Virus record (IMG/VR): IMGVR_UViG_3300046533_000211
Span: 33,220-97,219 of that record
Origin: a virus
Lineage: Duplodnaviria; Heunggongvirae; Uroviricota; Caudoviricetes
Direction: 5' to 3' (one strand)
Length of the DNA: 64,000 bases
Positions within the stretch are counted from its first letter, which is position 1, and every line of letters begins with the position of its first letter. A model generated the notes under the pieces. That model had not been told where the DNA came from and searched no databases. It saw only the letters and a program-made list of their open reading frames with translations. Of the stretch, positions 1-42,524 are shown piece after piece. The position numbers and the translations under genes are program-made.

Positions 1-347
1 GCTGCGTCGAGTTCTGGGATTCGCTGGACGCCGATGAGCCACCAGAGCTGGACGACTCGGTGAGCACCTACCGGGCAGTGCGTGAACTGCACCCCGACAT
101 CACGGAGGGCATGGCAGCCGAGATCTCCTGGGAGATGGCGTGGGAGTACGGGCGGCTCCAGGTCGATGCCAAGCAGACCGAGCAGGCCCTGCGCGGGGTC
201 AAGGCCAAGATCCTCGCGGAGATGGGCAACGCCCAGTTCGCCACCTGCAACGGAGACATCGTCGCTGCCCGCCAGCCACACGCCAAGGGCGGAATTGCCT
301 TGGTGCAGAAGGGAAGTGGAGTCGATGAGCCTGCTGTTCAGCCATGA
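1..347 (+). CDS. hypothetical protein, 5' truncated by window edge (frame 3 is open from base 3; possibly the exonuclease partner of the downstream RecT-like gene)
   Basis: Open frame from window start to TGA 345-347; codon usage consistent with neighbours; position immediately upstream of RecT-like gene. Confidence 0.5.
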   Translation, partial: CVEFWDSLDADEPPELDDSVSTYRAVRELHPDITEGMAAEISWEMAWEYGRLQVDAKQTEQALRGVKAKILAEMGNAQFATCNGDIVAARQPHAKGGIALVQKGSGVDEPAVQP

Positions 348-480
348 CGAACTGGTCGCACTGGGCCGCTGCACCACCTGCGGATGGCACCCGCCGACAC
401 AGGGCCACGACCCCAAGATTCGGCACCGGCCAGTGGCGACTCCCGGCCAGCGGGAACTGAAGCGAAGGGCTGCGAAATGA
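325..480 (+). CDS. small Cys-containing protein (51 aa; GRCTTCGWH motif)
   Basis: ATG 325 in frame of ORF 82-480; overlaps previous gene end; short, so uncertain. Confidence 0.3.
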   Translation: MSLLFSHDELVALGRCTTCGWHPPTQGHDPKIRHRPVATPGQRELKRRAAK

Positions 481-595
481 TAGCGGCGGGTGAACGTCAG
501 GCGTACTCTGCGCGACAGGTAGGCCCGTTCTGGACCCGTCGCTCAAGAGATGTGGACCGCCACAAGGGTGGTCCCGAATTGAGGAAGGTGTCCAC

Positions 596-1606
596 ATGAG
601 CGAGGACAGCAACAGAGAAGTCGAGGTGATGGAAGCCCAGCCGCTTCCAGAAGTCTCGGAGATCACCGAACCCACCACGGGTTCGCTGCAGCGGCTCGAA
701 GCCGAAGCACTGGCCATGGACAAGGCCTACAAAATTGCGAAGGCACTGAGCGCAACGCAGATGGTTCCCGAGCACTTCCAGCGCGACTTCAAACCACGCG
801 GATGCACTGACCCACTCGGGGACTCAGCAACCTGGAACCTGTCGGCGGCGATCATGTACGGGGCCGAGCTGGGCCTGACCGCGATCCAGTCCGCACAGAA
901 CATCTTCGTGATCCATGGCAAGCCAGCCGTCTACGCCCGCACGATGGCGGCGCAGGTGCGGCGGGCTGGCTACAAGATCGAGGAGGTCGAGGCCTCCGAC
1001 GAGCGGGTGATCTGGCGCGGGCTGCGTGACGGCAACTGGGCCAGCAGCGAGTGGACCATGGCGAGGGCCACCCAGGCTGGCTACACCAGCAACGAGCGGT
1101 ACCAGACGAATCCGCAGGAGATGTTGCGGGCCAAGGCGATCAGTGAGGTTTGCCGGATCCAGTATCAGGACGTGCTGCTCGGCATGGCCTACTCGGTGGA
1201 GGAACTGCAGCTCGACACCGTGGTGGTGACCCGCCCGGTCAAGACAGGGGTGCGCGGGACTGCCAAGCTGCGGGAGATCGCAGAGGCGGCGCAGAACGGA
1301 AGCGGCGAGGCCAGCCCCTCGGAACCGGAGGCAAAACCGGAACCACCCGAACCACCCGCTCCCGCCGAGGTGCCGATGGCCATCGAGGAGCAGAAGGAGC
1401 GCATCCGTGACCTCTACCGGGCCAAGGGTGTCAGCGCCACCGGAGTGCTGGAGGACATCAGCACCTTCTTCAAGCTAGACCGCAGGCTGCCTTCGCTACA
1501 CAAGCTCTCGTCCGCTCAGGCCGACGAGGTCATTGCCCGCCTGACTCAGGCAGAGGATCAGGGCGAGCCGTCTCCACCGCAGGAGGAGAACGACACACAG
1601 ACATGA
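596..1606 (+). CDS. recT: RecT/Redbeta-like single-strand annealing recombinase with Pro/Glu-rich C-terminal tail
   Basis: 336-aa ORF; N-terminal 230 aa resemble RecT family (KIAKALSATQMVPEHFQ..., NIFVIHGKPAVYART...); GGA-rich region before ATG. Confidence 0.6.
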   Translation: MSEDSNREVEVMEAQPLPEVSEITEPTTGSLQRLEAEALAMDKAYKIAKALSATQMVPEHFQRDFKPRGCTDPLGDSATWNLSAAIMYGAELGLTAIQSAQNIFVIHGKPAVYARTMAAQVRRAGYKIEEVEASDERVIWRGLRDGNWASSEWTMARATQAGYTSNERYQTNPQEMLRAKAISEVCRIQYQDVLLGMAYSVEELQLDTVVVTRPVKTGVRGTAKLREIAEAAQNGSGEASPSEPEAKPEPPEPPAPAEVPMAIEEQKERIRDLYRAKGVSATGVLEDISTFFKLDRRLPSLHKLSSAQADEVIARLTQAEDQGEPSPPQEENDTQT

Positions 1607-1614
1607 CGCGGGAA

Positions 1615-1654
1615 CGGCCCCGGCACTGGAGGAAGGGACCAGATGCCGGGGCCG
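1615..1654 (+). terminator. intrinsic terminator hairpin (11-bp stem CGGCCCCGGCA/TGCCGGGGCCG, T-rich tail)
   Basis: Perfect inverted repeat 1615-1625/1644-1654 followed by tgaccgtttctt, 9 nt after recT stop. Confidence 0.6.
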
Positions 1655-1898
1655 TGACCGTTTCTTAGACACAGTGAGGATACCCCGTTATGTGTTCAGG
1701 GCAGAGCACATTCGGCCATCGGAGTGTTGGTCGAAATGATGTTTGCCGAATAGGTTCCCAGCGCCAATATGGCGGATTAGAGTCACCCAGAGAATTGCCC
1801 CGGCGTGGTCTGCACAACCACCCGAGGCGTGGCCAGCTACCGAGAGCTGACAGGCGTGAGATTACACGGATGTCGTTCCCTGATGGGGATGAATCCCG

Positions 1899-2750
1899 GT
1901 GACTGACGCAAGGTTCCCAGAACGCTGGCTCACGGATCGGCGCATTCTTCGTCTCAGCAGTGACGCCTTCCGGGGGTTCGTCAACAGCCTGGCGTACTCG
2001 GTGTCAAACAAGACAGACGGAGTGATCGAGCCAGACGACCTCCCGTTGATCCCCAGCTTCGCAGAGCACACCGACAAGGTGCTATGCGAAGCGGGGTTAT
2101 GGCAGGAGGGTGAGGACAACTGGCTGATCGCTGAGTTCGCCGACACACAGCTGAGCAGCTCGGAACTCGAAGCACTGGCCAAGGCCCGGAAGGCCAATCG
2201 AGCGCGTCAGGCTAAGTGGAAGGCTAAGCAGTCTGACCAGGCAATTTCGAATGAGAGCGTTACCAATAACGTTAGCGGAGACGTTAGTGAGACCGTTACT
2301 GCACAGGTAAGGACAGGACAGGACAGGAGTCCTGTCCTTATAGCTACTAACAACGTAAGTGGTCCACCTCCTTCTCAAGAGCTTCAGTTGTCACCTAAGT
2401 CGGGTACGTCACCAGAGCCGCAGAAGCCGAAACGGAAACCGGCCCGCAGCCAGCTCCCCGACGACTGGGTTCCACCACCAGAGGTCCGCGAGCGCATGAA
2501 GGCGAAGTATCCGCACCTCGATCTCAAGGCCGAGTGCTTCGCATTCGTCAACCACCACCAGGCCCACGGGAACGACATGGCCGACTGGACGAAGGCCTTC
2601 TGGACCTGGCTGGGCAACACCCGCAAGTTCGGCAGCAATGGCGGGGAGGTGAACGGTCGCCCGGTGACGGGTGCCGACAAGAAGGGCATGGACTGGATGG
2701 CACTGGGCCGTCAGGTCAAGGAACGAAAGGATCGCAAGGAACTCACATGA
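1899..2750 (+). CDS. putative replication initiator / DNA-binding protein with internal iteron-encoded linker
   Basis: 283-aa ORF; lambda-O-like architecture: N-terminal domain, low-complexity linker encoded by an AT-rich repeat region (2255-2340), C-terminal domain; follows recombination genes. Confidence 0.55.
   Translation: MTDARFPERWLTDRRILRLSSDAFRGFVNSLAYSVSNKTDGVIEPDDLPLIPSFAEHTDKVLCEAGLWQEGEDNWLIAEFADTQLSSSELEALAKARKANRARQAKWKAKQSDQAISNESVTNNVSGDVSETVTAQVRTGQDRSPVLIATNNVSGPPPSQELQLSPKSGTSPEPQKPKRKPARSQLPDDWVPPPEVRERMKAKYPHLDLKAECFAFVNHHQAHGNDMADWTKAFWTWLGNTRKFGSNGGEVNGRPVTGADKKGMDWMALGRQVKERKDRKELT
2255..2360 (+). repeat. candidate origin of replication: 4 iteron-like repeats (AACGTTAGCGG / GACGTTAGTGA / ACCGTTACTGC / AACGTAAGTGG, about 12-bp phasing), 3x GGACA direct repeats and a 19-bp palindrome AGGACAGGA-G-TCCTGTCCT in a locally AT-rich stretch
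   Basis: Read directly in sequence 2264-2360; GC content drops well below the window average. Confidence 0.5.
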
Positions 2751-3373
2751 TCGAATCCGATGACATCGGTGATGCGCTGGCCATGCTCTCGGGCAACGCA
2801 CCAGACAGGACGCCGCAGCCCAGCGAGCTGGTGATCGAGGCCTGGCTGGACTACTTCAAGAGCTACCCGACCTGGACCGGTGACGAGCTGGTGGCAGTCA
2901 CGGCTGAGTATTGCAAGACACCGCGCGAGCGGATGGTCCAGCCAGCAGACCTGGGCGACATCATCAAGGCCTGGCGCAACGATGCGCTGTCGAGGATGGA
3001 CCCGGATGAGCGGGCCAACGCCTGGAACGACCTCGGTGGAGGTGGCTACCCAGGCGACGAGAAGCCACGGGTGCCGCGTGACATCTACGGCGTCCCCGAC
3101 AAGTCCTGCATGGACGAACCGCCCTACCCGCTGGACTGGTCCACCGACCAGCGGCTCAAGGCGTACTGGGAGCGGGTGCGCTCTGGGGTCATCAGGCCTG
3201 GCCGGGTCAAGGACGAGCCATCCACCGTGAAGGCTGGCTACGGGAACGCACCGGATGAGCATGCGCCTGCCGGGGAGTGCCAGGACCCCTCCTGCGACAA
3301 GCCGTCCACCTTCGGCCCCTATTGCGCCAAGCACTACGTGCTGAGCTTCCAGCTCGTCAAGGATCTGCTGTGA
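2747..3373 (+). CDS. hypothetical protein (C-terminal CxxC...C..C zinc-binding-like tail)
   Basis: ATG 2747 overlaps upstream TGA (ATGA coupling); 208 aa in frame of ORF 2534-3373. Confidence 0.6.
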   Translation: MIESDDIGDALAMLSGNAPDRTPQPSELVIEAWLDYFKSYPTWTGDELVAVTAEYCKTPRERMVQPADLGDIIKAWRNDALSRMDPDERANAWNDLGGGGYPGDEKPRVPRDIYGVPDKSCMDEPPYPLDWSTDQRLKAYWERVRSGVIRPGRVKDEPSTVKAGYGNAPDEHAPAGECQDPSCDKPSTFGPYCAKHYVLSFQLVKDLL

Positions 3374-3759
3374 TCGCAGCGATGGCCACCACCTGCCCGC
3401 ACTGCAAGTCGGGTCCGGGTGAGGCCTGCCTGGGACCAGCCTGGCGGGGCAAGGGCCTGAACTCGCGCAGGCCGCTGCGGTTCTCTGCCGCACACCCCCA
3501 GCGCATCGCCAAGGCGGCAGCTCTGGAGGCGGGGGCCAGCGACCGCGAGGCCAGAGTGGCAGCCCGGTTCGCAGTGCTCACCACCCAGCCCACGGAGATC
3601 GTGCCGTACCTGGAGGTGGCCCGGATGGCAGTGGAGGATGCGGGCCAGGTGTCCATGGGCAAGTACCGCAAGCACAACCCGCCAGCCCCCGAGGTGCCCA
3701 TCGCCAAGGCAGAGCCGCCTGAGCTTGAGCCTGAGCCGGAACCGGAGCCTGAGGCATGA
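3370..3759 (+). CDS. hypothetical protein (N-terminal CPHC..C zinc-ribbon-like; PE-repeat tail)
   Basis: GTG 3370 overlapping upstream stop (GTGA); alternative ATG 3382. Confidence 0.5.
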   Translation: MIAAMATTCPHCKSGPGEACLGPAWRGKGLNSRRPLRFSAAHPQRIAKAAALEAGASDREARVAARFAVLTTQPTEIVPYLEVARMAVEDAGQVSMGKYRKHNPPAPEVPIAKAEPPELEPEPEPEPEA

Positions 3760-3896
3760 GCGCCATGGACACCTGCAAGTGCCGGGAGTACCGCGAGGTC
3801 TCGCCAGGCGTCTGCAGCTGCACCCACACCAGGAACTACCACAAGCGCAACGTCGGGCCGTGCTGGTACCCGACCCAGATGAAGGGCACCAGATGA
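3756..3896 (+). CDS. small Cys-rich protein (46 aa, C..C....C.C..C)
   Basis: ATG 3756 overlaps upstream TGA; ends ATGA-coupled to next gene. Confidence 0.45.
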   Translation: MSAMDTCKCREYREVSPGVCSCTHTRNYHKRNVGPCWYPTQMKGTR

Positions 3897-4300
3897 CCGA
3901 CAAGCCAAGCACCGCAGCGGATGGCCGGGGCCTGCTCGGCCCGGACTTCCTGGGAGGGATGGACCCAGCCGACTGGGTGAGGGAACAGCGTGATGACGCG
4001 CCACCCATCCCCGAGGGCGTCCAGCAGCGGGTCGACTGGGTGAACTCGCTGCTTCCCGAGGGCATGCGGCTGGACACCACGCCGGTCCTGCCGCCGAGCC
4101 AGGATTTCGTCCCTGAGCCTTACCCGAGGCCTGGCTGGTCCTCCCTAGCCGACAACGCACTGTTCGTGCGTCAGCAGGCCGCACGGGTCCAGGAATGCCC
4201 CCTGTGCGGTGGGCTGTGGGATGGGGATGGGCCTGACTTGTGCCCAGACTGCGAGGACTACATGGCCGAGCTGCCAGGCGCGGTCTGGGACGAGGCCTAG
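3893..4300 (+). CDS. hypothetical protein (C-terminal CPLCGG...CPDC zinc-ribbon)
   Basis: ATG 3893 in frame of ORF 3638-4300, coupled ATGA. Confidence 0.6.
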   Translation: MTDKPSTAADGRGLLGPDFLGGMDPADWVREQRDDAPPIPEGVQQRVDWVNSLLPEGMRLDTTPVLPPSQDFVPEPYPRPGWSSLADNALFVRQQAARVQECPLCGGLWDGDGPDLCPDCEDYMAELPGAVWDEA

Positions 4301-4308
4301 GAGGCCAC

Positions 4309-4473
4309 ATGATGAACTGCAGCATCTGCCAGCACCAGTCGGGACGGCGCGAGATCTGCTGGGAGTGCGCGCCCATCCTCTGGCCACACCGCAAGGTCAA
4401 CAACGGAGCGAAGGTGCTGCACGGCAGGCTGATGGCGGTGCCGGATGTGCCCGTCGTTCCGCTGCTGACCTGA
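4309..4473 (+). CDS. small Cys-rich protein (54 aa; CSICQH...CWEC)
   Basis: ATGATG start 4309 within ORF 4240-4473; GGAGG 8 nt upstream. Confidence 0.5.
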   Translation: MMNCSICQHQSGRREICWECAPILWPHRKVNNGAKVLHGRLMAVPDVPVVPLLT

Positions 4474-4547
4474 ACTGGAGTAATTGATACTCCGCTGCTA
4501 TTCTCACAGGGAGCGGTTGGCACAGGGCCGACCCGGAATGGAGACAC

Positions 4548-5306
4548 ATGAGCAATTTGCTGGTGGTGGACTGGGATTACTTCTTTTACAACCCGATGTA
4601 CGCCCTGCATGGTGACGATCCACGCTTCTGGCTATTCGACTGGGGCCACCAAGAAACCAACATGTTCATCGACACGCTCTGGCCCCTCCGGGCCGCCGCA
4701 TTCCTGAAGTACGACATGGAGCTACCCGGCGTCGAGGTGCCCCCGGACTGGTGGGATCGGTTCACCATCACCGAGGACGCCATCTGTGAGGTCTCGGACT
4801 CGAACATGTATTCCGGCGTGGTGGATGACGAAGCGGCCTTCGATCACGTCTGGCTGTTCGATGCTCATCACGACCTGTTCAGCATCACGACCGAGGAGCA
4901 GCTGCAGGCATACCGCGACAAGGGCCAGATCACCTGCGAGGACTGGATGTTCGCCCATCACCTGCGCGGCGCGAAGCTGCACTGGCGCTGGCCCAAGTGG
5001 TTCGACTACGGCAAGAACTACCGCAAGGACATCCCCAAGTGGGTGGGCTGCGATGCACGTCGGGACGACCTGGGCCGGTTCGATCCGAACATGAGCTTCG
5101 ACGCAGTGTCCATCTGCCGGTCGGGTGCCTGGGTTCCGCCCTGGTGTGACGAGGAGTTCGAGCGGTTCTACAGCTCCTGTCCCGTCAGCGAGATCACGCA
5201 GGTGGACAAGATGCCCCTGAAGCGTGGCTGGGACATGGAGCTGGCGTGGAAGAACGTCGAGGCCATGAAACGGATGGATGAGCAGATGGAGGAGCAGCAG
5301 GCATGA
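4548..5306 (+). CDS. hypothetical protein, 252 aa, Trp/His/Asp-rich (possible metal-dependent hydrolase-like fold; unassigned)
   Basis: Clean ORF with GGAG before ATG; preceded by 75-bp AT-rich gap containing two small hairpins. Confidence 0.65.
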   Translation: MSNLLVVDWDYFFYNPMYALHGDDPRFWLFDWGHQETNMFIDTLWPLRAAAFLKYDMELPGVEVPPDWWDRFTITEDAICEVSDSNMYSGVVDDEAAFDHVWLFDAHHDLFSITTEEQLQAYRDKGQITCEDWMFAHHLRGAKLHWRWPKWFDYGKNYRKDIPKWVGCDARRDDLGRFDPNMSFDAVSICRSGAWVPPWCDEEFERFYSSCPVSEITQVDKMPLKRGWDMELAWKNVEAMKRMDEQMEEQQA

Positions 5307-5614
5307 GCGCACCATGCAAGATCGGGGATCGGATCAGGCTCACCGCCCCGCTGGCCGACGAATACCCACCCCCCGGACTGCCAGCTGGGCTGGAGGGCAC
5401 CGTCGACTGGGTGGGCCAGTGGGAGTCGGAGCTGACCCGTCAGGTCGGGGTCCGCTGGGACAACGGGCGGCGGCTGATCCTGCTGGATGGTGACAGCTTC
5501 GAGGTCATCCCTACCGAGACGTTCCATGAGCCACGCGGTCGCACCACCAACGCCAGGGCGCAGCGGTTCGCAGACCCAACCGGGTTCCCGTGTGAACTGG
5601 ACACCCTGCCATGA
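5303..5614 (+). CDS. hypothetical protein (103 aa)
   Basis: ATGA-coupled ORF. Confidence 0.6.
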   Translation: MSAPCKIGDRIRLTAPLADEYPPPGLPAGLEGTVDWVGQWESELTRQVGVRWDNGRRLILLDGDSFEVIPTETFHEPRGRTTNARAQRFADPTGFPCELDTLP

Positions 5615-5811
5615 GCGCCCCACTGCCGGGTGAGCAGATCACCGTCAACGTGACGATCAGCGTCAACAGCACCGGGACCGTCAACCTGTCGTTCACCGAC
5701 ATTCCACCGGAGGACCTGCCCGCGCTGCTCTGCTCGGTGGGCACCGAGGAGTTCGCCCGCAAGATGTCTGCACAGCTTCAGGAGGACGCACAGAAACGGA
5801 GGCAGCCATGA
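5611..5811 (+). CDS. hypothetical protein (66 aa)
   Basis: ATGA-coupled ORF. Confidence 0.5.
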   Translation: MSAPLPGEQITVNVTISVNSTGTVNLSFTDIPPEDLPALLCSVGTEEFARKMSAQLQEDAQKRRQP

Positions 5812-6023
5812 CCGCCATGCGGCTCACCAAGACCTGCGGCATCCCGGTGTACGTCAACTCGGACCAGGTGCTCTATTGGTTCGGAACCGAGATGCTGGGA
5901 CGGCCCAGTGAGAAGTGGACCCGGATCGTGTTCAGCGGTGTCGGGGACGGGGCGGCACTGGGCGTGCGCGAGACACCCGAGGAGATCGCGGCGATGTTCA
6001 ACGCAGTGGATGTCGCCCGATGA
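5808..6023 (+). CDS. hypothetical protein (71 aa)
   Basis: ATGA-coupled ORF. Confidence 0.5.
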   Translation: MTAMRLTKTCGIPVYVNSDQVLYWFGTEMLGRPSEKWTRIVFSGVGDGAALGVRETPEEIAAMFNAVDVAR

Positions 6024-6244
6024 GCTGGGACCTGTTCCAGTGGATCAGCATCGTGATCCTCTGGTGGCTCATCGTCAAGAACCTGCGGATCATGCACCAG
6101 GTCAAGCGCCGCTGGCAGGCAGAGCGGATCGAGCTGGTGGAGATCACCGGCCTGTCGCCATTGCAGGTGCAGGTCGCCATGGATGCCGCAATGGCGATCT
6201 TCCACCAGCGGATCGAGGAGATGAGACAGCCCCATGACCAGTGA
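6020..6244 (+). CDS. small membrane protein (1 TM: WISIVILWWLIV)
   Basis: ATG 6020 in frame of ORF 5915-6244, coupled to upstream stop. Confidence 0.5.
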   Translation: MSWDLFQWISIVILWWLIVKNLRIMHQVKRRWQAERIELVEITGLSPLQVQVAMDAAMAIFHQRIEEMRQPHDQ

Positions 6245-6404
6245 CGGCCTGGAGGTTGAGGAGTCCGACCACGGGTTCAAGTGGGTGTACCAGTCCACGG
6301 GCGGGGCCTGCTTCATCTCGCCGAAGCTCTACAAGACCAAGGCAGCAGCCCGCAAGGCTGGCCGTACCTGGATCGCCGAGCAATACCCATCAGAGGAGGA
6401 GTGA
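6234..6404 (+). CDS. hypothetical small protein (56 aa)
   Basis: ATG 6234, GAGGAG upstream; ends ATGA-coupled at 6404; below ORF-track size cutoff. Confidence 0.4.
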   Translation: MTSDGLEVEESDHGFKWVYQSTGGACFISPKLYKTKAAARKAGRTWIAEQYPSEEE

Positions 6405-6631
6405 TGCCGGGAGCACCGGACCTCAAGCAGAGCAACCCACTCAAGAAGCTCGTCGCCGATGTGGTGTACGAGGCGGTCGCCAAGCTGGACTTCGCCTACA
6501 CGGCAAACGTCGGTCATGTGGACGTGCGCCGGGTGAGTGACCTGCGAACCGAGGTCACGATCACGCGGGCGGTAAACAGCGCCAACTTCCCGCCTCGCCA
6601 CTTCACCGTGCAGGTGATCGAGCACCAATGA
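6404..6631 (+). CDS. hypothetical protein (75 aa)
   Basis: ATG 6404 in frame of ORF 6281-6631, GAGGAG RBS. Confidence 0.5.
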   Translation: MPGAPDLKQSNPLKKLVADVVYEAVAKLDFAYTANVGHVDVRRVSDLRTEVTITRAVNSANFPPRHFTVQVIEHQ

Positions 6632-6708
6632 GCCTGCCGCAGGGGCGTGAACGTCACCGAGCTGAGCTATCTGCTTTCCTCAGCTGACAACGGATCGATG
6701 GATGGACC

Positions 6709-7221
6709 ATGACGATCAGAAACTCCGATCAGAGTCCTCCCCAGCGCCCCTGCGGCACCCCGCGACCCAGGAGCTGCCTTGTGCTCTGCCCCGTCTGTCT
6801 CCAGCCCGTCAAGACCAACAGCCGGGGTGAGGTCAAGCCGCACACCGACGCCCACTTCGGTGACTGCCCGATGGGTGGCCGGGTCGCCCCGCCTTGGGAT
6901 GAGGACAGCACCCGGCCTGCAGTCCAGGGCCGCTCCGGTGGTATCTGCGAATACTGCTCACAGCGGCTGGCCACCGACATGCACCACCGCAAGTCGCTCG
7001 GCGTCGGAGGCTTCTGGCAACCGGCCAACATCATCCACATCTGTCGGCCCTGTCACCGCTTCATCACTGAGCACCCGAACTGGGCCTGGTCGCTCGGGCT
7101 GATCGTGCGTTCCACAGAGGACCCGGCCAAGAGATCTGTCACCCGCGAGAACGGGGACATGTTCCAGCCCTCCGATGACGTGGCCCCACCGCTGCCCAAG
7201 AAGCATCGAAGGAAGCGATGA
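6709..7221 (+). CDS. HNH homing-type endonuclease
   Basis: CxxC...CEYCS...HHRKSLGVGG...NIIHICRPCHRFITEHP: HNH His-Asn-His zinc-finger nuclease motif. Confidence 0.75.
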   Translation: MTIRNSDQSPPQRPCGTPRPRSCLVLCPVCLQPVKTNSRGEVKPHTDAHFGDCPMGGRVAPPWDEDSTRPAVQGRSGGICEYCSQRLATDMHHRKSLGVGGFWQPANIIHICRPCHRFITEHPNWAWSLGLIVRSTEDPAKRSVTRENGDMFQPSDDVAPPLPKKHRRKR

Positions 7222-7310
7222 CCTGCAAACGCAAGCACAGCTACACCGTCCAGCGGCGAGGCAGGCGTCCGATATTGGTTTGCGTGAAGTGTGGGAAGGA
7301 GATCCGCTAG
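7218..7310 (+). CDS. zinc-ribbon peptide (30 aa, MTCKRKH...LVCVKCGKEIR)
   Basis: ATG 7218 overlaps HNH stop (ATGA); below ORF-track cutoff. Confidence 0.35.
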   Translation: MTCKRKHSYTVQRRGRRPILVCVKCGKEIR

Positions 7311-7314
7311 AGCC

Positions 7315-8604
7315 GTGACGAAGATCGTCCTGCACCCAAGCGCCCTGCCGCGCTTCCCCCAGGCCCCGTGCGAGCTACACGGGGCCTGGAAGTGGTGGCG
7401 GGTGCGAGTTCGCGGCGACATCATCCAGCGGTACGAGCCAAGCCGGGACGACATCCAGACAGCGATCCTGGAGTTCGAGGACGGCTACCCGGACACCGAG
7501 ATCACCGACCCGCCAGTCATGCGGGTGGTCACCGTGAACGAGATCCGTGACTTCGGCAGCCCGCTCAGATCAGCGATGCTGGACTCCAGCACCACCGAGG
7601 CCCTCATCGTCTGGAATGGCAGCCCCGGCCCGGACTGGCAGCCACTCCCCGGTAACACCTGTCGCCCTGGTGAGTACGAGATCGTCACGCTGTCCAACCG
7701 GAGCGAGGAGCGCAGCAGCTGGCGGGATGCCTACGAGGCCCGGTGGTCCTCAGACCAGCGGCGGCTCCAGTGGCCACCCCAGCGGGCCACCCAGCGCAGG
7801 CCACTCACCGTGGCCGAGGCCGAGCAGGCGCTCAGGGATGTCAGCAGGACCGTCCAGGTTTACCGGGGCCAACTGGACGACACGGTATTGGCATTCGAGC
7901 GATTCGAGGAAGCGGCCCGGATCAACCGGGAGCAAGTGCAGCAGCTCTACGCCGTGCCACCTGAGATCCTGCTGACACCACCACCCAGGCCCCGGCGTCA
8001 GCCGCTGCCGCCGCAGACCGCCCGTGTGGCCTGGAACCCAGACGGCTCCAGGACTTACACCTTCGACGCACCCACCGGCACCTACGACGCGGTGGTGTTC
8101 CAGGACGGCACCGAGGTTCCCTTCCCCACCATCACGATGGCCTCTCAGGGTCAGGTCATCGTGACGGTATCGGCTGACAACACGGTGATCCCCGACAGCC
8201 AGCCCCGGTTGCGGCGGGCACTCGGTGACCCCAACCGTGCGCGGTACGCCCGAGTGGATACCAGGTGGGAAGCCAGCCCTGCGCTGACTGATCCACGGTT
8301 GAACCCGGAGAAGAAGGTGCTGGACTCCATCGAGGAGCTGGTCAACGACCAGATCACTCGGGCGGCTCCCCGTGGTGTGCCACTGGACGACTACGACACC
8401 GACCGCTACCCGGAATGCAAGGAGTGCGGCCACGACTGGCACGGGCTGGAGTGCGACCCCGAGGACGGCTCCTGCGAGTGCATCAACACCGACTGGCTCG
8501 GACCTGACCAGAGGACCAAGCACCTAGACCTCGATGAGCCGACCCCGCTGGAGATCCAGCGCCCTGAGGGCACCCGGATTCGGAACCTGGACATGGACTG
8601 GTGA
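7315..8604 (+). CDS. hypothetical protein (about 430 aa; C-terminal CKECGH...C.C cysteine cluster)
   Basis: ORF 7291-8604; GTG 7315 has GGAAGGAG upstream (alternative GTG 7291). Confidence 0.6.
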   Translation: MTKIVLHPSALPRFPQAPCELHGAWKWWRVRVRGDIIQRYEPSRDDIQTAILEFEDGYPDTEITDPPVMRVVTVNEIRDFGSPLRSAMLDSSTTEALIVWNGSPGPDWQPLPGNTCRPGEYEIVTLSNRSEERSSWRDAYEARWSSDQRRLQWPPQRATQRRPLTVAEAEQALRDVSRTVQVYRGQLDDTVLAFERFEEAARINREQVQQLYAVPPEILLTPPPRPRRQPLPPQTARVAWNPDGSRTYTFDAPTGTYDAVVFQDGTEVPFPTITMASQGQVIVTVSADNTVIPDSQPRLRRALGDPNRARYARVDTRWEASPALTDPRLNPEKKVLDSIEELVNDQITRAAPRGVPLDDYDTDRYPECKECGHDWHGLECDPEDGSCECINTDWLGPDQRTKHLDLDEPTPLEIQRPEGTRIRNLDMDW

Positions 8605-8616
8605 TGGCCACACAGG

Positions 8617-8656
8617 AAGGCCCCGGACGCTGCGCCATGCAGGTCTCCGGGGCCTT
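8617..8656. terminator. bidirectional terminator hairpin (stem AAGGCCCCGGA/TCCGGGGCCTT; core identical to copy at 43455-43495)
   Basis: Inverted repeat 8617-8627/8646-8656, 13 nt after stop of 7315-8604, in a convergent gene gap. Confidence 0.6.
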
Positions 8657-8809
8657 GCTGCTGGGGGTAGTGGTCTGGTGTGCCGGTGACACCTGTACTG
8701 GGCTGACTTGTTTGGCTCAGCTAGACCTGCGGTCAGGTTCGACCACTACTTCCAACACCAGAAGCATATGCTAGCGCGCTACCAATTGGCAACCCACGTG
8801 GCGTGTGAT

Positions 8810-9433
8810 CTACACCTCAGCGTCGTACTCGCCGTATTCGATGATCAACCCAGGCACAGCCCCAGCCACCCGAGCGGCCACCGCGCGATGCCAGCAGGCC
8901 GGGTAGCGGCTCTTGTGGTCATCCCCGTCACGCTGGGTGAGCAGGACGACATCCTCCCCGGTCTCCTCGGCCTTCTTGACCTTGGCCTTGTACTGCAGGA
9001 CCAGGTTATTGACCAGGTTCGTGGCCACCTCGTACATCTCATCAAGCTCATCGACAATCGCGGCGGGGACTGCCGCCTCCTCACGCTCCATCCGCTGGAG
9101 CCGCCGAAGCAGGTTGGCCGATGTTTGCTGGGTCGGACGCTTCGGGCGGATGTCCTCGGGCAGGTCGCCAACCGTCGCCACACCATGGCGGGCCATCGCG
9201 CTGATCAGCTCCTGAGTCTCGGCGATCTTCAGGTGGGTGGCCTCAAGCTGGCGCTCCCACTGCTCGACCCGCAGGGACAGATCAGCGGCAGTTCGGGCGT
9301 CACGGCGCTCTGGCTCAGGCCGTTCGGGCAATCTGCCCCAGAGGTAATCAGCGAGCTGGGCCAGGCTGAACCCCAGGAAGATCCGTGTGGTGGCAAGCTC
9401 GGCACCAGTCATCAGGTCAGTCTGCGTGGGCAT
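8810..9433 (-). CDS. XRE-family HTH transcriptional regulator, candidate immunity repressor
   Basis: N-terminal HTH (MTGAELATTRIFLGFSLAQLADYL); ATG at 9433 with GGAAGGA RBS; divergent from a Cro/Xis-like HTH gene. Confidence 0.6.
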   Translation of the reverse strand: MPTQTDLMTGAELATTRIFLGFSLAQLADYLWGRLPERPEPERRDARTAADLSLRVEQWERQLEATHLKIAETQELISAMARHGVATVGDLPEDIRPKRPTQQTSANLLRRLQRMEREEAAVPAAIVDELDEMYEVATNLVNNLVLQYKAKVKKAEETGEDVVLLTQRDGDDHKSRYPACWHRAVAARVAGAVPGLIIEYGEYDAEV

Positions 9434-9530
9434 TCGATTCCTTCCAGGGACGGGTGGCCGGTTGCCATACCTTTGGACAGCATAGTCCAAGGCCTGGGCC
9501 TTTAATGCCTAGTGAGGTATGCTAATCGAC
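9434..9530. promoter_or_regulatory. divergent regulatory region (candidate genetic switch) carrying GCATAGTCCA and TAATGCCTAGTGAGGTA motifs; -10-like TATGCT 7 nt before ATG 9531 (leaderless-type)
   Basis: Motifs shared with 26360-26400 and 47340-47365; TATGCT at 9517-9522. Confidence 0.45.
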
Positions 9531-9779
9531 ATGGCTAATCGAAAGCGAGCACCGAAGGATGTGGAGGCGCGCCACCGGGCGATCCTCACCTCGGCTGCTG
9601 GGACGATGGTCAAGAAGCGCAATGACGCCTGGAAGGCCGAGCTGGTCCTGCGCGAGAAGGTCCGAGACGCATTCGCGGAGGGTGTCACAGTCGGGCCGAT
9701 CAAGGAAGCGACCAACCTGTCGACCCCCCGGCTCTACCAGATCAAGAACGGGGACGAGCCAGAGTCCGCATCAGCGTGA
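9531..9779 (+). CDS. small HTH protein (Cro/excisionase-like; ...ATNLSTPRLYQI...)
   Basis: ATG 9531 (alternative ATG 9519 lies inside the -10 hexamer); C-terminal HTH-like segment. Confidence 0.55.
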   Translation: MANRKRAPKDVEARHRAILTSAAGTMVKKRNDAWKAELVLREKVRDAFAEGVTVGPIKEATNLSTPRLYQIKNGDEPESASA

Positions 9780-9802
9780 TCCACGCCTACGGAGGAGTTC
9801 AC

Positions 9803-10174
9803 GTGGGTGGCCTGTTCGATGACCGCACGCCTGGCCATGGTCGGCTCCACATCGGCACCCACACCGAGACTGGTGAGCTGTTCATCATGGACGGCCCCGA
9901 CCCCGAGGTGCTGTTCGCCGACGAGGTGCTGTGGAACCTGGTGCACCATCCCGAGATGTGCTCCCCGATGGTCAGGGTGGACTGGCAACCATTCCCCAAG
10001 TGCGATCCCCCGGCGACCTGCTGCCAGTCCTGCCCACAGGGTCCGATGGTCAACCAGCGCGAGTGCTTCTACGGCTCCAAGCTGACCATTCAGACCACCA
10101 CCGTCACGCTGATCTACATCATCGGCGAATACCACTGGGAGCTGAACGCCTGGTGGGCGCACTGGCCCGACTAG
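9803..10174 (+). CDS. hypothetical Cys/Trp-rich protein
   Basis: GTG 9803 with GGAGGA 6 nt upstream, in frame of ORF 9776-10174; convergent with the lysis operon. Confidence 0.5.
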   Translation: MGGLFDDRTPGHGRLHIGTHTETGELFIMDGPDPEVLFADEVLWNLVHHPEMCSPMVRVDWQPFPKCDPPATCCQSCPQGPMVNQRECFYGSKLTIQTTTVTLIYIIGEYHWELNAWWAHWPD

Positions 10175-10353
10175 TCGCAGCAGCAGCCCCAGGCGTGGTA
10201 GATGTTCTCGTCGGTGTCCTCCACCCGTACCCCGTTGTGCTGGCCCTTGTGGCCCTTGAACCGGGTGCAGATGTGACGGAACGCGGAGATCTCAGCACAC
10301 AGCCCACCGTCCTTGGCGTACTGGACAGTCTCCTCGAAGGTCAGCCTGGCCAT
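10171..10353 (-). CDS. small Cys-rich protein (60 aa; ends GCCCD)
   Basis: Terminal gene of leftward late operon. Confidence 0.5.
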   Translation of the reverse strand: MARLTFEETVQYAKDGGLCAEISAFRHICTRFKGHKGQHNGVRVEDTDENIYHAWGCCCD

Positions 10354-10580
10354 CAGCCGAGCACGGCTCTCGCCGCAGCGACCTTGGCCTGGAGCACCTT
10401 TCGCGACTCGGGGTCTAGCTCACCGGACACCAGCTCCACCGCAATGACCAGTTCAGCCAGCGCCGCCGTCTGCTTCTCATGCTTCTTGCGGCTCTGGATG
10501 AAGGCGTTGACCCCTGCCGTCACCGCCGCCGAGATGGCAGTGCCGATGCCGGTGATCAGGACATCGCCAGCGCTGGGCAT
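10353..10580 (-). CDS. small membrane protein (holin-like, 1 TM)
   Basis: ATG at 10580 within ORF 10353-10646; hydrophobic ITGIGTAISAAVTAGV segment. Confidence 0.5.
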   Translation of the reverse strand: MPSAGDVLITGIGTAISAAVTAGVNAFIQSRKKHEKQTAALAELVIAVELVSGELDPESRKVLQAKVAAARAVLG

Positions 10581-11044
10581 CAGGGGTCCTTGCGGAAGAA
10601 CAGCATCCAGACATCCCGCCCGACCAGGAACAACGTGAAGGAGCACACGGCGAAGAAGACGTAGTTCGTGAAGATGTTCACATCAGCGAACGGGAAGTCC
10701 GCATTGATCCTGGCCGACCAGACGGACCACATCACCGTGGACAGCAGGATGTCAGCCACCAGCCGCAGCGACTTCCCTGCGTAATCGTGGTGATAGATCC
10801 GCAGCAGCCACCCGCACAGGTACAGCGCCGGGGCAATCAGGCCAATCGTCTCCCAGATGGCATAGCCGAGGGCGACCGGCTTCTCCAGCACCTGCATCCG
10901 CTGTGCGCCGGGGGTGATCATGATGTGGATGATGGCCGCGAACACGAACGGGTAGAGCAGCACGCTGAACCGGATGTACGGGTCAGGCTCAGCCTTCCAG
11001 CGCTGGAAGGCGTCGCGGAACTTGACCAGCGGCGGGGTGATCAC
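10580..11044 (-). CDS. 4-TM membrane protein (holin/lysis-associated)
   Basis: 154 aa with 4 hydrophobic spans; adjacent to endolysin. Confidence 0.6.
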   Translation of the reverse strand: MITPPLVKFRDAFQRWKAEPDPYIRFSVLLYPFVFAAIIHIMITPGAQRMQVLEKPVALGYAIWETIGLIAPALYLCGWLLRIYHHDYAGKSLRLVADILLSTVMWSVWSARINADFPFADVNIFTNYVFFAVCSFTLFLVGRDVWMLFFRKDP

Positions 11045-11445
11045 GCTGGCTTCACTACGGACGGGGTGCCCTTGGGTCCAATCTTCGAGCAGCCCAGCGA
11101 GGTGAGCACAGACGCCACGGCCATCCCGGCACCCACCACCAGTGCATCAAGTAATGGGACCGCAGTGATCCCAGACGAGTCGCCCGCCTGGATCAGGCCC
11201 AGGCCCACGACCACACCCTGGCCGAAGGACTTGATGGCACGCTCGGCGGCATCCTTCCAGAACGCCTTGGTCCAGATCGCCCCGGTCGCCTCTGGTTGGC
11301 TGAACTCAGCAGCAGCCTGCTGGGTGATCTGCTCCTCGGTGACGGGTGGAGCTACCCGCTCGATCAGATCCTCGGTTGGTTTGACCGGCTCGGCTGCCCT
11401 GTGCTCACCCACATAGTCGGGCTGCTCGGGTCCTGCTTGGCCCAT
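11041..11445 (-). CDS. holin-like protein (C-terminal 2 TM)
   Basis: Hydrophilic N-terminus then GVVVGLGLIQ...GAGMAVASVL TM pair; immediately downstream of endolysin. Confidence 0.6.
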   Translation of the reverse strand: MGQAGPEQPDYVGEHRAAEPVKPTEDLIERVAPPVTEEQITQQAAAEFSQPEATGAIWTKAFWKDAAERAIKSFGQGVVVGLGLIQAGDSSGITAVPLLDALVVGAGMAVASVLTSLGCSKIGPKGTPSVVKPA

Positions 11446-11454
11446 GGCGACCTC

Positions 11455-14013
11455 CTATTGCATCGGGACTCGCTGCGCCGCCCAGTAATGGACGTGCTGG
11501 ATCGCGTGGGCGAGGTAGGTCTGGCCGGGGAACACCTCGCGCATGTGGTACTCGATGTGTGGGGCGGTGCCCTGTGCGAAGAAGGTGATCGCCAGCACGG
11601 CTGCGTAGATGGCGGCGGCGATGCCCTTCACGGACAGGAACCGCTCGTCGCTCCCCAACCGACCAGCCAGCTCGTTCAGCCTGGGCAGCCGGGTCGCCCC
11701 TTCGAAGGTCACACCGAACCGTGCAGCCTGCGCCTTGGCATCCTCACCGGCATCGCCGTCCAGGTTGCCCAGCAGCTCGATGCAGTTGTAGGCGAAGTCA
11801 CGGGCGAACTCACGGAAGCCATCATGCAGCTGCATCTCGGTGACCATCGTGTACACGTCGCGCATGATCTCACCGGCCAGGCCCAGCGGGACCCCGGAGT
11901 ACATGTCCCCGTCGTCGCACTCGTCTGCCCAGTTGTCGAACATGTCGATCTGGCGATATTGAGCGATCCCCTCGTCCGGGCGGGGAGGGCCACCGTAGAA
12001 GGTGTGCCCCTCCTGGCGGCTCGGGTTGCCGAAGGTGTATCCGGCCACGAAGTTATCCCGCACCGACTCCAGCCGCCCACCGGGCAGCGTCTCCTGGTGG
12101 ACCCGCGCAGCGGCCTCGCCACCCTGGCTGTAGCCGCCGAGCATGAACGTGCGATTCGGGTGGGCAAGCAGCCAGTCCACCGACCAGTCCACCGCGATCT
12201 GGACGCTCTCCTGGTAGCTCGGGGACTGGGCACCCTCACCGCTGGCACCACCGAGCGGCCCCATGCTCCAGGGGGCCTGGACGGGGACCTCCTCAACGAC
12301 GCCTGAGCACCCGTCAGCCACGTCCGAGGGGTAGCCCACCCCAGGAGCGGCCCACGTCCCGCTGAAGGTCAGCAGGGCATGCCTATCGGCAGGCTGACCG
12401 CCACCCTCGGGCGGGGGGATGAACGGTGGTGGGGTGCCGCCCTCCAGCACGCGCTTGATCTCGGCCACGCAGTCGGTGATGGACAGGCCACCCAGCTGCG
12501 GCCAGCCATGTCCGTCCACCCCGGCCAGCTGCTCCCACTCCAGCTTCGCGTAGTCCTCCGCAGTGAGCGAGCTGGCCTCAATCGACAGGCCTGCTGGCTG
12601 CACGGTCTGCTGGACCAGTGAGCGGACTGCCGCCAGGGCATCGACCAGGTAGAGGTTCAGCCCCTCGGCGTTCTGGCCCAGCTGGGGCCAGCCTGTGCCG
12701 TAGCCCGTGGCCGGATCGACCGGGCCGCACAGCTGCTCGTAGGACAGCTTCACGTAGTCGGTGTCCGCTGGGGGCGGCGGCTCGACAACCGGGGCCGGGA
12801 CCGCCGACCAGGTGTAGCCCTTGGGCGGGATCAGGGTGGCCACCTGGTCGAAGCTGCACCAGTAGCCGAACGGGTTGAACCCGCTGTCCGCGATCCAGAT
12901 GTGCCGACCCTCAGGCCCCTCGTAGTAGCCCATCCCCGCCACATAGTGGAACACCGTGCCGCCACCGTAGCTGGGTGACTGCGACCCCCTGGTGCCGCGT
13001 GGGTAGTTGGACGGCGGGGCGACCCAGTTCATCACCACACCCCAGCCCGCATCGAAGCTGTTCTTGAGGTGCACCCACAGCTCGTCCTTCTGCTGCTGGC
13101 TGATCGGGTCCTGCTCCAGATACAACTCGCGGTAGTCACCCTCGGGCACGTAGCGGTCCAGCACGTCCTCGATCAGCCCCACATAGTCGGTGCCACCCGT
13201 GTCGGTGCCCATCTCGTTGGCCAGCTGCTGCTCGGAGACGAAGATGCCCCTGGCATTGAGCACCACCTGGGTGGCGGCGGGTCCGCACCAGTAGCCCGTC
13301 TCCTGGGGTGTGATGCTGTGGTCGTAGGCGAGAACCTTCTCGACCGCTTCTGGTGCTGGCATGGGTGGACCTCCTCCGATTCCCAGCTCAGCGGCGAACT
13401 GCACTGGGTCTAGGCCGTAGGCGAAGTTGTGATCGCAGTTGCCGAACGGCGGTGACGACTGCGGCCCAGAGCCGTAGCCCTGGCCATCGGTGTACTGGTG
13501 GGCGATCTGGCCTGGATAGTTGGGGCGTGTGGTGCTGTACTTCGCCACCACCAGCCGCACCCCCTCCGGTCGCTGCGGCCACAGGCTGTCGAGATCGCCC
13601 TGGTTCCCGTAGCCGATCACCCTGCGGCGATCCCCCAACCAGGCGCAGAGGTCCTCGAACGCCGCGTTGATGCCCCCGCTCTGGTTCCCGGTGATCTCCC
13701 CACCCCACGATTCCACGTCCAGCATGATCGCCATCTTGGGATGTGGCTGTCCCACTTGGGACTTCAGCGTGGCGACGGCGTCCTGCCAGTTGGGTCGCCA
13801 GACGAAGTACACCTGGAAGAACGTCAGCCGTCCCTCGTCGGTCTTGCGCCTGCACCAGTCGTAGTTGCCTGCCCATTTCTTGTCCCGGTAGGTGCCGTCG
13901 TTGGATCGGATGCAGATGACCGGGTGCGGGTACGAGTCGTCGCAGGGCACCTGCCACTCGGACACGTCGCAGTAGAGGGTGTCGGCCACCTGGGCATCGT
14001 CCCACGCCGACAC
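11455..14013 (-). CDS. multidomain endolysin: GH25-like muramidase + C39-like cysteine peptidase + 2 repeat modules + LysB-like cutinase/esterase (GYSQG)
   Basis: DVSEWQ GH25-type start motif; YWCGPAA...FHYVAGMGY papain/C39-like Cys-His; tandem about 45-aa repeats (YxxLxxEQL.G...GWPQLG); C-terminal GYSQGGE serine-esterase motif as in mycobacteriophage LysB; GTG start 14013. Confidence 0.75.
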   Translation of the reverse strand: MSAWDDAQVADTLYCDVSEWQVPCDDSYPHPVICIRSNDGTYRDKKWAGNYDWCRRKTDEGRLTFFQVYFVWRPNWQDAVATLKSQVGQPHPKMAIMLDVESWGGEITGNQSGGINAAFEDLCAWLGDRRRVIGYGNQGDLDSLWPQRPEGVRLVVAKYSTTRPNYPGQIAHQYTDGQGYGSGPQSSPPFGNCDHNFAYGLDPVQFAAELGIGGGPPMPAPEAVEKVLAYDHSITPQETGYWCGPAATQVVLNARGIFVSEQQLANEMGTDTGGTDYVGLIEDVLDRYVPEGDYRELYLEQDPISQQQKDELWVHLKNSFDAGWGVVMNWVAPPSNYPRGTRGSQSPSYGGGTVFHYVAGMGYYEGPEGRHIWIADSGFNPFGYWCSFDQVATLIPPKGYTWSAVPAPVVEPPPPADTDYVKLSYEQLCGPVDPATGYGTGWPQLGQNAEGLNLYLVDALAAVRSLVQQTVQPAGLSIEASSLTAEDYAKLEWEQLAGVDGHGWPQLGGLSITDCVAEIKRVLEGGTPPPFIPPPEGGGQPADRHALLTFSGTWAAPGVGYPSDVADGCSGVVEEVPVQAPWSMGPLGGASGEGAQSPSYQESVQIAVDWSVDWLLAHPNRTFMLGGYSQGGEAAARVHQETLPGGRLESVRDNFVAGYTFGNPSRQEGHTFYGGPPRPDEGIAQYRQIDMFDNWADECDDGDMYSGVPLGLAGEIMRDVYTMVTEMQLHDGFREFARDFAYNCIELLGNLDGDAGEDAKAQAARFGVTFEGATRLPRLNELAGRLGSDERFLSVKGIAAAIYAAVLAITFFAQGTAPHIEYHMREVFPGQTYLAHAIQHVHYWAAQRVPMQ

Positions 14014-42471: not shown

Positions 42472-42524
42472 ACAAAAAACTTTCGGCGTGTTTCGGCGCG
42501 CCTGCTTGACAGCGGTAACGGCAA

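Follow-up and report, generated by a model that had tools for sequence, protein, structure and literature searches.

Introduction

Among the described systems that come closest to the locus examined here, the stoperator system comprises more than 20 asymmetric 13-bp repressor sites distributed genome-wide, most of them in short, promoter-less gaps inside operons, where they act on elongation (PMC9283540). Stoperator action depends on orientation, and the repressor is a monomer with an N-terminal helix-turn-helix (HTH) and a C-terminal stoperator domain (PMC9283540). Aca2 represses its own promoter as a dimer, by binding inverted repeats that overlap the -10 and -35 elements there (PMC8434428). 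Here we describe a 64,000-nt stretch of a Caudoviricetes genome (IMG/VR record IMGVR_UViG_3300046533_000211, positions 33,220 to 97,219; hereafter the window, with positions counted from its first letter), in which a 97-bp control region separates two divergent HTH genes, at 8810-9433 on the minus strand and 9531-9779 on the plus strand, and in which a promoter module found in that region recurs at other intergenic sites.

An earlier note made from the sequence had read this pair as a candidate immunity switch, with an XRE-type repressor, a Cro/Xis-like partner and a dispersed, stoperator-like set of operators. The divergent pair and its 97-bp control region are as described there, and we conclude that the region belongs to a real but fairly ordinary phage regulatory network rather than to a stoperator-type immunity system. 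In our preferred reading, to which we assign a probability of about one half, the modules would be promoter cassettes whose box binds a phage-encoded regulator, thereby coordinating approximately 11 early or accessory units.

Results

A box and a -10-like hexamer recur together in intergenic DNA

When the recurring sites are aligned by the direction of the downstream gene, they share an 8-bp box, AAT(T/G)(G/C)NYA, a G+C-rich 6-bp spacer and a hexamer TAnnnT. The operator-like pieces listed in the earlier note are real and recurrent, and every string quoted there is present within 0-5 nt of its assigned position, but the pieces had been mis-parsed: TATGCT/GCATAG is a -10-type element, and the unit that the sites have in common is a box 6 bp upstream of TAnnnT. 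The strings themselves lie at 9480-9489 and 26389-26398 (GCATAGTCCA), 9503-9519 (TAATGCCTAGTGAGGTA), 26374-26382 (TAGGCATTA) and 46943-46960 (CATAGTCGGGTAGCAATT), at 47342-47360 (GCATAGCTGGCTAGGCATT) and 43412-43427 (CTAGCATAGATGCTAG), each 1 nt from where it had been placed, and at 8764-8775 (GCATATGCTAGC) and 8782-8789 (CCAATTGG), a pair whose range had been started 4 nt late.

The composite pattern AATKSNYA-N6-TANNNW has seven strict copies in the window against 0.11 expected, starting at 8787(-), 9504(+), 26381(-), 44248(-), 46960(-), 47360(-) and 54968(+). Weaker variants start at 63614(-), with box AGTTGACA, and at 43440(-), with box AATAGACA, and two further copies (L029:505 and L029:1366) lie in the adjoining 9.4 kb that contig L029 adds to the left of the window. 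All copies are intergenic, and in each of the nine window copies the module points toward the next gene, with a TAnnn(T/A) hexamer exactly 6 bp past the box and 6-60 nt from the start codon. For eight of the nine, the unit that the module heads comes after a hairpin or after a divergent or convergent gap. Thus the restriction of the motif to intergenic DNA, in a fixed orientation to transcription, holds as the earlier note had proposed, and coding DNA does not carry the motif at a similar density.

Counts of shorter words and of the assembled site point the same way. All seven TATGCT hexamers on either strand fall within the 7.2% of the window that is intergenic, making TATGCT the most intergenic-enriched of 1957 hexamers tested (p=9e-7), with an unremarkable total count (7 versus 8.7 expected). 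At one mismatch or fewer, ATTGCTAGC is intergenic in 5/5 occurrences and TAATGCCTA in 4/5; TTGNNA-N6-TAnnnT is intergenic in all five of its occurrences. The 17-mer at 9503-9519 recurs at 26366-26382 (-) with one mismatch (0.02 expected). All 12 positions that score above 10 bits with the site matrix are intergenic and none is coding, and leave-one-out scores for six window sites range from 16 to 29 bits, compared with a 99.99th percentile of 9 bits. Independent k-mer scans agree with these matrix statistics.

The modules are not canonical -35/-10 pairs, because a scan of the window with the sigma-70 consensus returned only the promoter at 8792-8763. We also considered the box as a -35 element for a hexamer 16-18 bp downstream and rejected this, as no site has such spacing. 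Four copies have an additional, overlapping TATGCT hexamer 5 bp downstream of the first, and in two of these four it completes a canonical TTGCAA/TTGCCA-17/18-TATGCT promoter. Some copies are dyadic: the box at 44248 forms a 16-bp near-palindrome, GCTTGCAATTGCTAGC, and in the relative L091 a pair of boxes makes up a perfect inverted repeat, GCTAGCAAT-N5-ATTGCTAGC, ahead of a leaderless open reading frame (ORF).

Beyond the contigs of the phage itself, we found the composite module nowhere but in lineages with the HTH pair and in L034, the closest relative by portal protein; the remaining ~60 portal-related loci (~790 kb) contain none. A matrix built from window sites alone gave 5 matches over 831 kb from 67 portal-related loci, against 6 in a reversed-sequence null, with the three best matches in L034 and L091. 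The lack of excess over the null indicates that the motif is not general in the wider phage group.

The control region between the HTH genes

The 97-bp gap (9434-9530) holds the rightward module at 9504-9523 on the plus strand, which consists of box AATGCCTA (9504-9511), spacer GTGAGG and hexamer TATGCT (9518-9523), ending exactly 7 nt ahead of the ATG at 9531. This arrangement, from which a leaderless transcript had been proposed, is confirmed in the window and kept in related lineages. Across the window and seven further lineages (L103, L001/L002, L009, L007, L008, L101 and L102, the promoters of L102 having been read by eye), among which the small HTH protein is 55-79% identical, TAnnnT always lies 6-8 nt ahead of the ATG despite diverged surroundings. 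Leaderless sigma-A promoters of actinobacteria carry such a hexamer 6-8 nt ahead of an ATG or GTG that doubles as transcription start and start codon, and lack a Shine-Dalgarno sequence; the window gene fits this pattern in the placement of its hexamer, and 9531-9779 is probably translated from a leaderless mRNA.

Within these eight small-HTH promoters, box positions A2, T7 and A8 are invariant and TA stands exactly 6 bp past the box, in flanks that diverge. Between box and ATG, two spacings occur that differ by 5 bp. Because the spacing from box to TA is fixed while the distance to the working -10 and the ATG varies, the box is better regarded as a protein site than as a -35 element. One relative, L101, has the two HTH genes in tandem rather than divergent. 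Immediately downstream in the window, a 132-aa gene at 9776-10174 (+), which matched neither Pfam nor PHROG, has a start that overlaps the stop of 9531-9779 and is probably co-transcribed with it.

On the leftward side, a perfect inverted repeat, TTGGAC-AGCATA-GTCCAA (9473-9490), surrounds the -10 hexamer TATGCT on the minus strand (9484-9479). Read on that strand, GCATAGTCCA becomes TGGACTATGC, that is, TGGAC-TATGCT, comprising the -10 of the 8810-9433 promoter and one arm of the repeat. TGGAC-TAnnnT is kept upstream of the large HTH gene in six relatives, with TGGGC in L102. Neither GCATAGTCCA alone (4 matches at one mismatch or fewer versus 2.8 expected) nor the inverted repeat TGGAC-N6-GTCCA (5 matches at the same threshold versus 4.1 expected) qualified as a significant recurring element; GCATAGTCCA matters only because both of its exact copies adjoin a box.

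By the usual 6-8 nt rule, the 8810-9433 transcript probably begins with a conserved leader, AGGTATGGCAACCGGCCACC. The 19-nt block at its start, GGTATGGCAACCGGCCACC (9453-9471, minus strand), contains the dyad TGGC-N5-GCCA (9455-9467), a candidate autoregulatory operator or RNA element, and has no second copy in the window at three mismatches or fewer. In large-HTH promoters, TGGCAA(C/A/G)CGGCCA lies 17-21 nt past TGGAC-TAnnnT. The core TGGCAA-CGGCCA is kept in six aligned lineages, with differing GGTA/CC flanks in L103 and L001, and, by eye, in L102 as well. The TGGC and GCCA arms are invariant across lineages, and the 5-nt spacer between them varies (AACCG, AAACG or AAGCG). TGGC-N5-GCCA as such is mildly enriched in the window (7 versus 3.2 expected). 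No gene intervenes between this promoter and the ATG, and 8810-9433 is followed by an unrelated promoter and terminator.

Two further occurrences of the dyad were seen. The 13-mer TGGCAACCGGCCA has an exact second copy at 7015-7027 (+) in HNH coding DNA (~0.005 expected by a composition estimate), and a one-mismatch copy, TGGCTACCGGCCA, lies at 46795-46807 (-) in the 51-aa ORF downstream of the 46960 promoter. These copies may be extra sites for the Aca2-like protein or may have arisen by chance.

The two HTH proteins

The minus-strand gene 8810-9433, called by coding potential, encodes a 207-aa protein that itself has no Pfam match. In its family of 20 members, 12 match HTH_31 and four match Aca2_YdiL (PF08965; best E 4e-7), and the top Protein Data Bank (PDB) matches of the family profile are Aca2 structures (8w35 and 7vjo, E 0.007). 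An AlphaFold2 model with a mean predicted local distance difference test (pLDDT) score of 84 retains both HTH helices, and Foldseek matched it to Aca2, YdiL and SO3848 (7vjo, 7ezy, 7b5j, 1s4k and 2ox6) with probabilities of 0.98-1.0 and target-normalised template modelling scores of 0.63-0.66. HTH helix 2 is separated from the recognition helix by an insertion of some 70 residues (35-101) that includes a confidently predicted long helix (49-82); in the family alignment, short 128-aa forms lack this insertion. As modelled, 8810-9433 is therefore an Aca2/YdiL-type regulator with a split HTH and the C-terminal alpha/beta dimerisation fold of Aca2, and not the classical XRE/cI or L5-type repressor for which it had been taken. 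In Mycobacterium phage Typha, the homologue gp48 ("HTH DNA binding") is distinct from the annotated immunity repressor gp53, which stands beside the integrase gp52.

The 82-aa protein encoded by 9531-9779 (+), in what would be the Cro position, matches phrog_686 ("HTH DNA binding", E 2.4e-4) and has no Pfam match. Its 12 homologues are all metagenomic, and all begin with MANRK or MANKK. The AlphaFold2 model (pLDDT 88.6) has a long N-terminal helix of 41 residues (9-49) followed by a C-terminal tri-helical HTH (54-72). Foldseek found no Cro or Xis fold for this model; among PDB entries it came closest to TrpR-like and resolvase HTH domains, at E 0.7 or above, and the label Cro/Xis-like is thus not borne out.

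Individual module copies and their units

The copy at 8768-8787 (-), AATTGGTA-GCGCGC-TAGCAT, covers GCATATGCTAGC and CCAATTGG and overlaps the TTGCCA-18-TATGCT promoter at 8792-8763. This orphan promoter would give an RNA of ~146 nt, strongly structured by prediction (minimum free energy -69 kcal/mol, z = -5.2), that ends at the hairpin 8652-8621 and contains no credible ORF; we regard the minus-strand RNA of 8605-8809 as a candidate phage small RNA. L001, L007, L008 and L009 lack the whole 8605-8809 interval, and in them the stop codon of the HTH gene directly adjoins the convergent gene.

Inside the tail operon, in a 167-bp gap, AATGCCTA-TTGAGG-TAACGA(T) at 26362-26381 (-) lies 28 nt before the ATG at 26333 of a minor tail protein gene (phrog_1697 / PF10910). 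A second copy of TGGACTATGC (26389-26398, minus strand) stands in tandem 7 nt upstream of this box. The site near 26.4 kb thus holds both halves of the 9.5-kb control region, in tandem instead of divergent.

Four copies lie among the accessory genes between 42.5 and 47.7 kb, all on the minus strand. That at 44229-44248, AATTGCTA-GCGGGG-TAACAT, overlaps a TTGCAA-17-TATGCT promoter and heads gene 43508-44194. AATTGCTA-CCCGAC-TATGAT at 46941-46960, which contains CATAGTCGGGTAGCAATT, lies 11 nt before the ATG at 46929 of a 51-aa ORF, and AATGCCTA-GCCAGC-TATGCT at 47341-47360 heads gene 47027-47287. The last of these falls within an 83-nt cassette (47303-47385) that is duplicated at 44191-44273. 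The variant at 43421-43440, AATAGACA-CCCCAC-TAGCAT followed by TATGCT (43419-43414), scores 12.3 bits and heads gene 43136-43360, with the palindrome CTAGCATAGATGCTAG. Hairpins close several units, at 43460-43491, 46984-47017 and 42472-42524. We also noted a 32-nt exact repeat, CCCCGGACGCTGCGCCATGCAGGTCTCCGGGG, at 8621-8652 and 43460-43491, a terminator-like hairpin that closes two unrelated units and at which public Logan assemblies of the phage break.

Two copies head units toward the other end of the window. AATTGACA-GCAGGC-TATAAT at 54968-54987 (+) lies 6 nt before the ATG of a 33-aa ORF, 54994-55095, and the unit runs on into 55092-55718 and 55904-56137. The 33-aa ORF (MTLRELWRRFVAFWIADDPDPEYSQLDRWDGLG) probably encodes a leaderless upstream peptide; its stop codon overlaps the ATG of 55092-55718. 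The variant AGTTGACA-CCGGAG-TACTAT at 63595-63614 (-) scores 18.2 bits (6.7 in leave-one-out) and heads a long minus-strand operon, which begins at 63546 and contains the Acb2/Tad1-domain gene 60842-61123. The product of that gene is an Acb2/Tad1 hairpin-domain protein (E 1.4e-12), and the 77-aa product of 55904-56137 (+) has a precomputed Acb5 match (PF26761) that was not reproduced by local Pfam. Each of these anti-defence-type genes is part of a box-headed unit.

The phage, its relatives and other loci

The window has a G+C content of 64.8%. Its minus strand carries a siphovirus-type gene set, including terminase (51158-52780), portal (49364-50749), protease (47701-49341), capsid (39114-40613), tape measure (30311-34705), lysin (11455-14013) and holin (11041-11445), and a plus-strand arm (1-8604) encodes RecE, RecT, a replication-initiator-like gene and an HNH gene. 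The capsid, which is 44-58% identical to those of Mycobacterium phages such as Bipper, Typha and prophiT37-1, is the sole link of the window to them. Its frame (39114-41405, minus strand) is open for 763 codons, of which only residues ~274-763 resemble known capsids, and plus-strand genes whose coding statistics are better extend across its upstream part; the true capsid gene is probably 39114-40613.

The genome comprises at least 87 kb, as L029 adds 9.4 kb to the left of the window and its contig runs 13.6 kb beyond. Against 50,697 phage records, neither megablast of 8000-11000 nor tblastn of the 8810-9433 protein gave a match, exact copies of window proteins were found in metagenome assemblies only, and a whole-window Rfam search at gathering thresholds found nothing. 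Homologues of the two HTH genes are confined to a narrow, metagenome-only clade. A search of genome contigs for the HTH family gave distant matches only, in Streptomyces, Mycobacterium and Rhodococcus metagenome-assembled genomes and in Amycolatopsis. No close relatives were present among 185,579 reference genomes, hence no prophage copies were found. PHROG and Pfam scans of the window's non-structural ORFs, which cover part of the ORFs of a genome that runs at least 13.6 kb beyond the sequence analysed, identified no integrase or recombinase, nor did the precomputed Pfam tables of L029, L001 and L002 list an integrase.

Several other features of the phage deserve mention. Two opposite-strand islands, 40740-42471 (+) and 44625-46733 (+), interrupt the structural module; one contains an S-adenosylmethionine-dependent methyltransferase and the other two paralogous ParB_N-domain proteins followed by a TET-associated glycosyltransferase (TAGT, PF20691), and together they form a possible DNA-hypermodification or virion-glycosylation cassette. 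The palindrome CACGTGCACGTGCACGTG stands between two direct copies of CATATACGTTTTCA at 63800-63860, close to the point at which public contigs stop and approximately 250 nt upstream of the left end's first gene; this arrangement may mark a genome end, packaging or origin feature. Clustered ACGTTAGTG-related repeats (2264, 2269, 2281 and 2353, within 2249-2360), possible iterons, lie just upstream of a replication-initiator-like ORF (2496-2750), in a stretch that is uncalled by the coding model and that public calls place inside a 283-aa ORF (1899-2750). Finally, a candidate for another regulator of the phage lies ~3.1-3.7 kb left of the window, where an uncalled 216-aa ORF at L029:5688-6338 (-) contains one HTH motif at residues 26-53 (HTH_23 / Sigma70_r4_2) and another at residues 174-195. 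Two promoters near this ORF have GCAATTGACA boxes at 9- and 11-bp spacing.

Discussion

In regard to mechanism, the box is best explained as the operator of a regulator because it is conserved, clade-specific, sometimes dyadic and situated just upstream of the -10. The 97-bp gap would contain two back-to-back promoters with predicted start points ~58 bp apart. The large HTH protein would most likely autoregulate through the leader dyad TGGC-N5-GCCA and, in the window phage, perhaps also through the inverted repeat over its own -10. At the other modules the box occupies the spacer immediately upstream of the -10, where a bound protein, putatively the product of 8810-9433 or of 9531-9779, would occlude RNA polymerase. 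Some 11 early or accessory units would in this way be controlled together, probably negatively: the small-HTH operon, the orphan structured RNA, four accessory units of the island at 42.5-47.7 kb, the unit at 55 kb, the left-end operon, the internal tail promoter and two units just outside the window. Since the box at 9504-9511 also overlaps the leftward -35 zone, one bound protein could set both divergent promoters.

Several observations weigh against this reading. The pattern was defined post hoc from intergenic sites, and the enrichment figures therefore overstate the independence of the evidence. The box is asymmetric in most copies, while dimers of the Aca2 type bind inverted repeats, and the inverted repeat around the leftward -10 is not kept, in its 3' arm, in L103 or L001. 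Three box-like sites are spaced otherwise (4482 with N9, and two in L029 with N9 and N11). No box accompanies the promoter of RecE/RecT, the main recombination and replication operon, just left of the window, and the module is thus not a global early switch. In addition, the 83-nt cassette of promoter and 5' untranslated region (UTR) occurs at 44191-44273, 47303-47385 and L029:~450-505; because part of the similarity is plain duplication, shared ancestry alone could explain some copies. The copies of this cassette are 77% identical, end in GCCCAGGCAAGAGGCCAGGGC before the ATG and precede three unrelated genes. A second common 5' UTR module, CGGCACCAGGCCGG, lies downstream of the 63614, 43440 and L029:1366 promoters.

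These duplications invite a rival account, in which a strong host sigma-A promoter, driven by its -10 and AT-rich upstream DNA, has spread by duplication or recombination and no regulator acts on the box. The two shared 5' UTR modules agree with it, as do the resemblance of the downstream half, TAnnnT, to a generic actinobacterial -10, the -35-like TTGNNA hexamers in which the box ends, and the two copies that overlap canonical TTGCAA/TTGCCA-17/18-TATGCT promoters. However, the 6-bp spacing of box and hexamer is incompatible with a -35/-10 pair, three AATGCCTA copies lack TTG, and box and TA are kept in eight lineages even where the second hexamer, 5 bp downstream, serves the ATG. Dyads in some copies also speak against it, and a generic host promoter feature is disfavoured because the composite, absent from ~790 kb of related phages, is limited to the HTH-pair clade and L034. 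We therefore consider promoter spread alone possible but unlikely. If instead the box replaced the -35 and a phage activator recruited polymerase there, as MotA does, the modules would constitute a temporal class of early or middle promoters. In most copies a -35 cannot be recognised at 16-18 bp, the box keeps a fixed distance from the -10, and the units encode accessory and anti-defence-type genes that would be needed early. The consensus AATTGCTA might also be likened to the box that MotA uses in T4, (a/t)(a/t)(a/t)TGCTT(t/c)A. Yet the site is centred at about -22, in the spacer, where bound proteins normally block polymerase, and its 6-bp distance contrasts with 11-13 bp in T4. Promoters with only a -10 are common in mycobacteria and need no activator, and neither MotA nor AsiA has a homologue among the genes scanned. 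An activator thus strikes us as distinctly improbable.

The proposal that 8810-9433 is a temperate immunity repressor, with motifs that act as operators or stoperators to silence lytic transcription, draws on the position of the HTH pair between the lysis cassette and the leftward-transcribed arm, which is usual for actinophage immunity loci. The motif is also asymmetric and oriented with transcription in 9/9 copies, as are the L5 sites (PMC9283540), and one copy lies inside the tail operon, where the hexamers (TATGCG and TAACGA) lack a final T. Nevertheless, of four features of the stoperator system, the window displays orientation only (9/9 copies sense to the next gene). Every copy has a -10-like hexamer, the copies are promoter-proximal and number ~9-11 rather than more than 20, only 26362-26381 falls inside a long operon, and the RecE/RecT promoter is boxless. 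The Aca2/YdiL fold is not that of an HTH joined to a stoperator domain, and the Typha homologue is not Typha's immunity repressor. Furthermore, we found no sign of lysogeny: among the ORFs scanned, no integrase was detected in the 64-kb window, in the adjoining 9.4 kb or, in relatives, between lysin and RecE, and the reference genomes hold no close relatives and hence no prophage copies. We regard an immunity switch as highly improbable, and continue to prefer promoter cassettes whose box would serve a phage-encoded regulator.

A more ambitious version of the regulator reading would make the split-HTH Aca2/YdiL-type protein the master regulator of ~11 immediate-early and accessory cassettes, including the Acb2/Tad1- and Acb5-type units, acting through the asymmetric box 6 bp from the -10 and through the dyad in its own leader, as mRNA or DNA. 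We hold this specific proposal to be very doubtful; if true, it would extend local Aca autorepression to a genome-wide anti-defence and accessory programme in actinophages, with an Aca2/YdiL-type protein, so far known as a local autorepressor, acting at many promoters. If the box is a regulator site, whatever binds it, an uncultivated actinophage clade would have a compact regulon that can be predicted from sequence, comprising the small-HTH operon, the candidate small RNA, accessory and anti-defence units and an internal tail promoter, and the module would offer a portable promoter/operator pair for high-GC hosts. Even if the box merely belongs to a duplicated promoter, the analysis yields predicted start points for about ten transcription units, and it replaces an annotation as an immunity and stoperator system that was attractive but wrong.

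Our findings can be set against four described systems. Middle promoters of T4 with a MotA box share with the modules an asymmetric box with a TGCT core, a fixed distance to TAnnnT and the lack of a canonical -35, but differ in spacing (11-13 bp, not 6 bp) and in depending on MotA and AsiA, which have no counterpart among the genes scanned here. As in the cI/Cro region of lambda, two small divergent HTH genes flank a control region of less than 100 bp, in which a single site, the box, lies both in the spacer of one promoter and across the -35 zone of its divergent partner. Unlike lambda, the region has no tandem array of dyad operators, the proteins have neither a peptidase-type C-terminal domain nor a Cro fold, and L101 carries the pair in tandem.

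The network of cluster A phages (L5 gp71, TipsytheTRex repressor) is likewise built on a short, asymmetric, dispersed intergenic site that is oriented with transcription, and the L5 site, which contains TGTCAA, resembles a -35 hexamer as the box does. In contrast to cluster A, the window phage has ~9-11 copies instead of more than 20, each fused to a -10-like hexamer and most of them at the heads of units, a candidate regulator of a different fold, and no evidence of an integrase or of lysogeny in the parts scanned. The closest likeness of the candidate regulator is to the Aca2/YdiL autorepressors (ZF40 Aca2, 7VJO/7B5J; Salmonella YdiL, 1S4K). It departs from known members in the ~70 residues that split its HTH, in its presumed actinobacterial host clade, in being monocistronic with no acr-type gene upstream and in having its conserved candidate operator in the transcribed leader rather than over the -35/-10. 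It nevertheless resembles them in family profile and in predicted structure, with a putative N-terminal XRE-type HTH and an alpha/beta C-terminal dimerisation domain, and in the window phage an inverted repeat over the -10 of its own promoter recalls the arrangement described for Aca2 and YdiL (PMC8434428).

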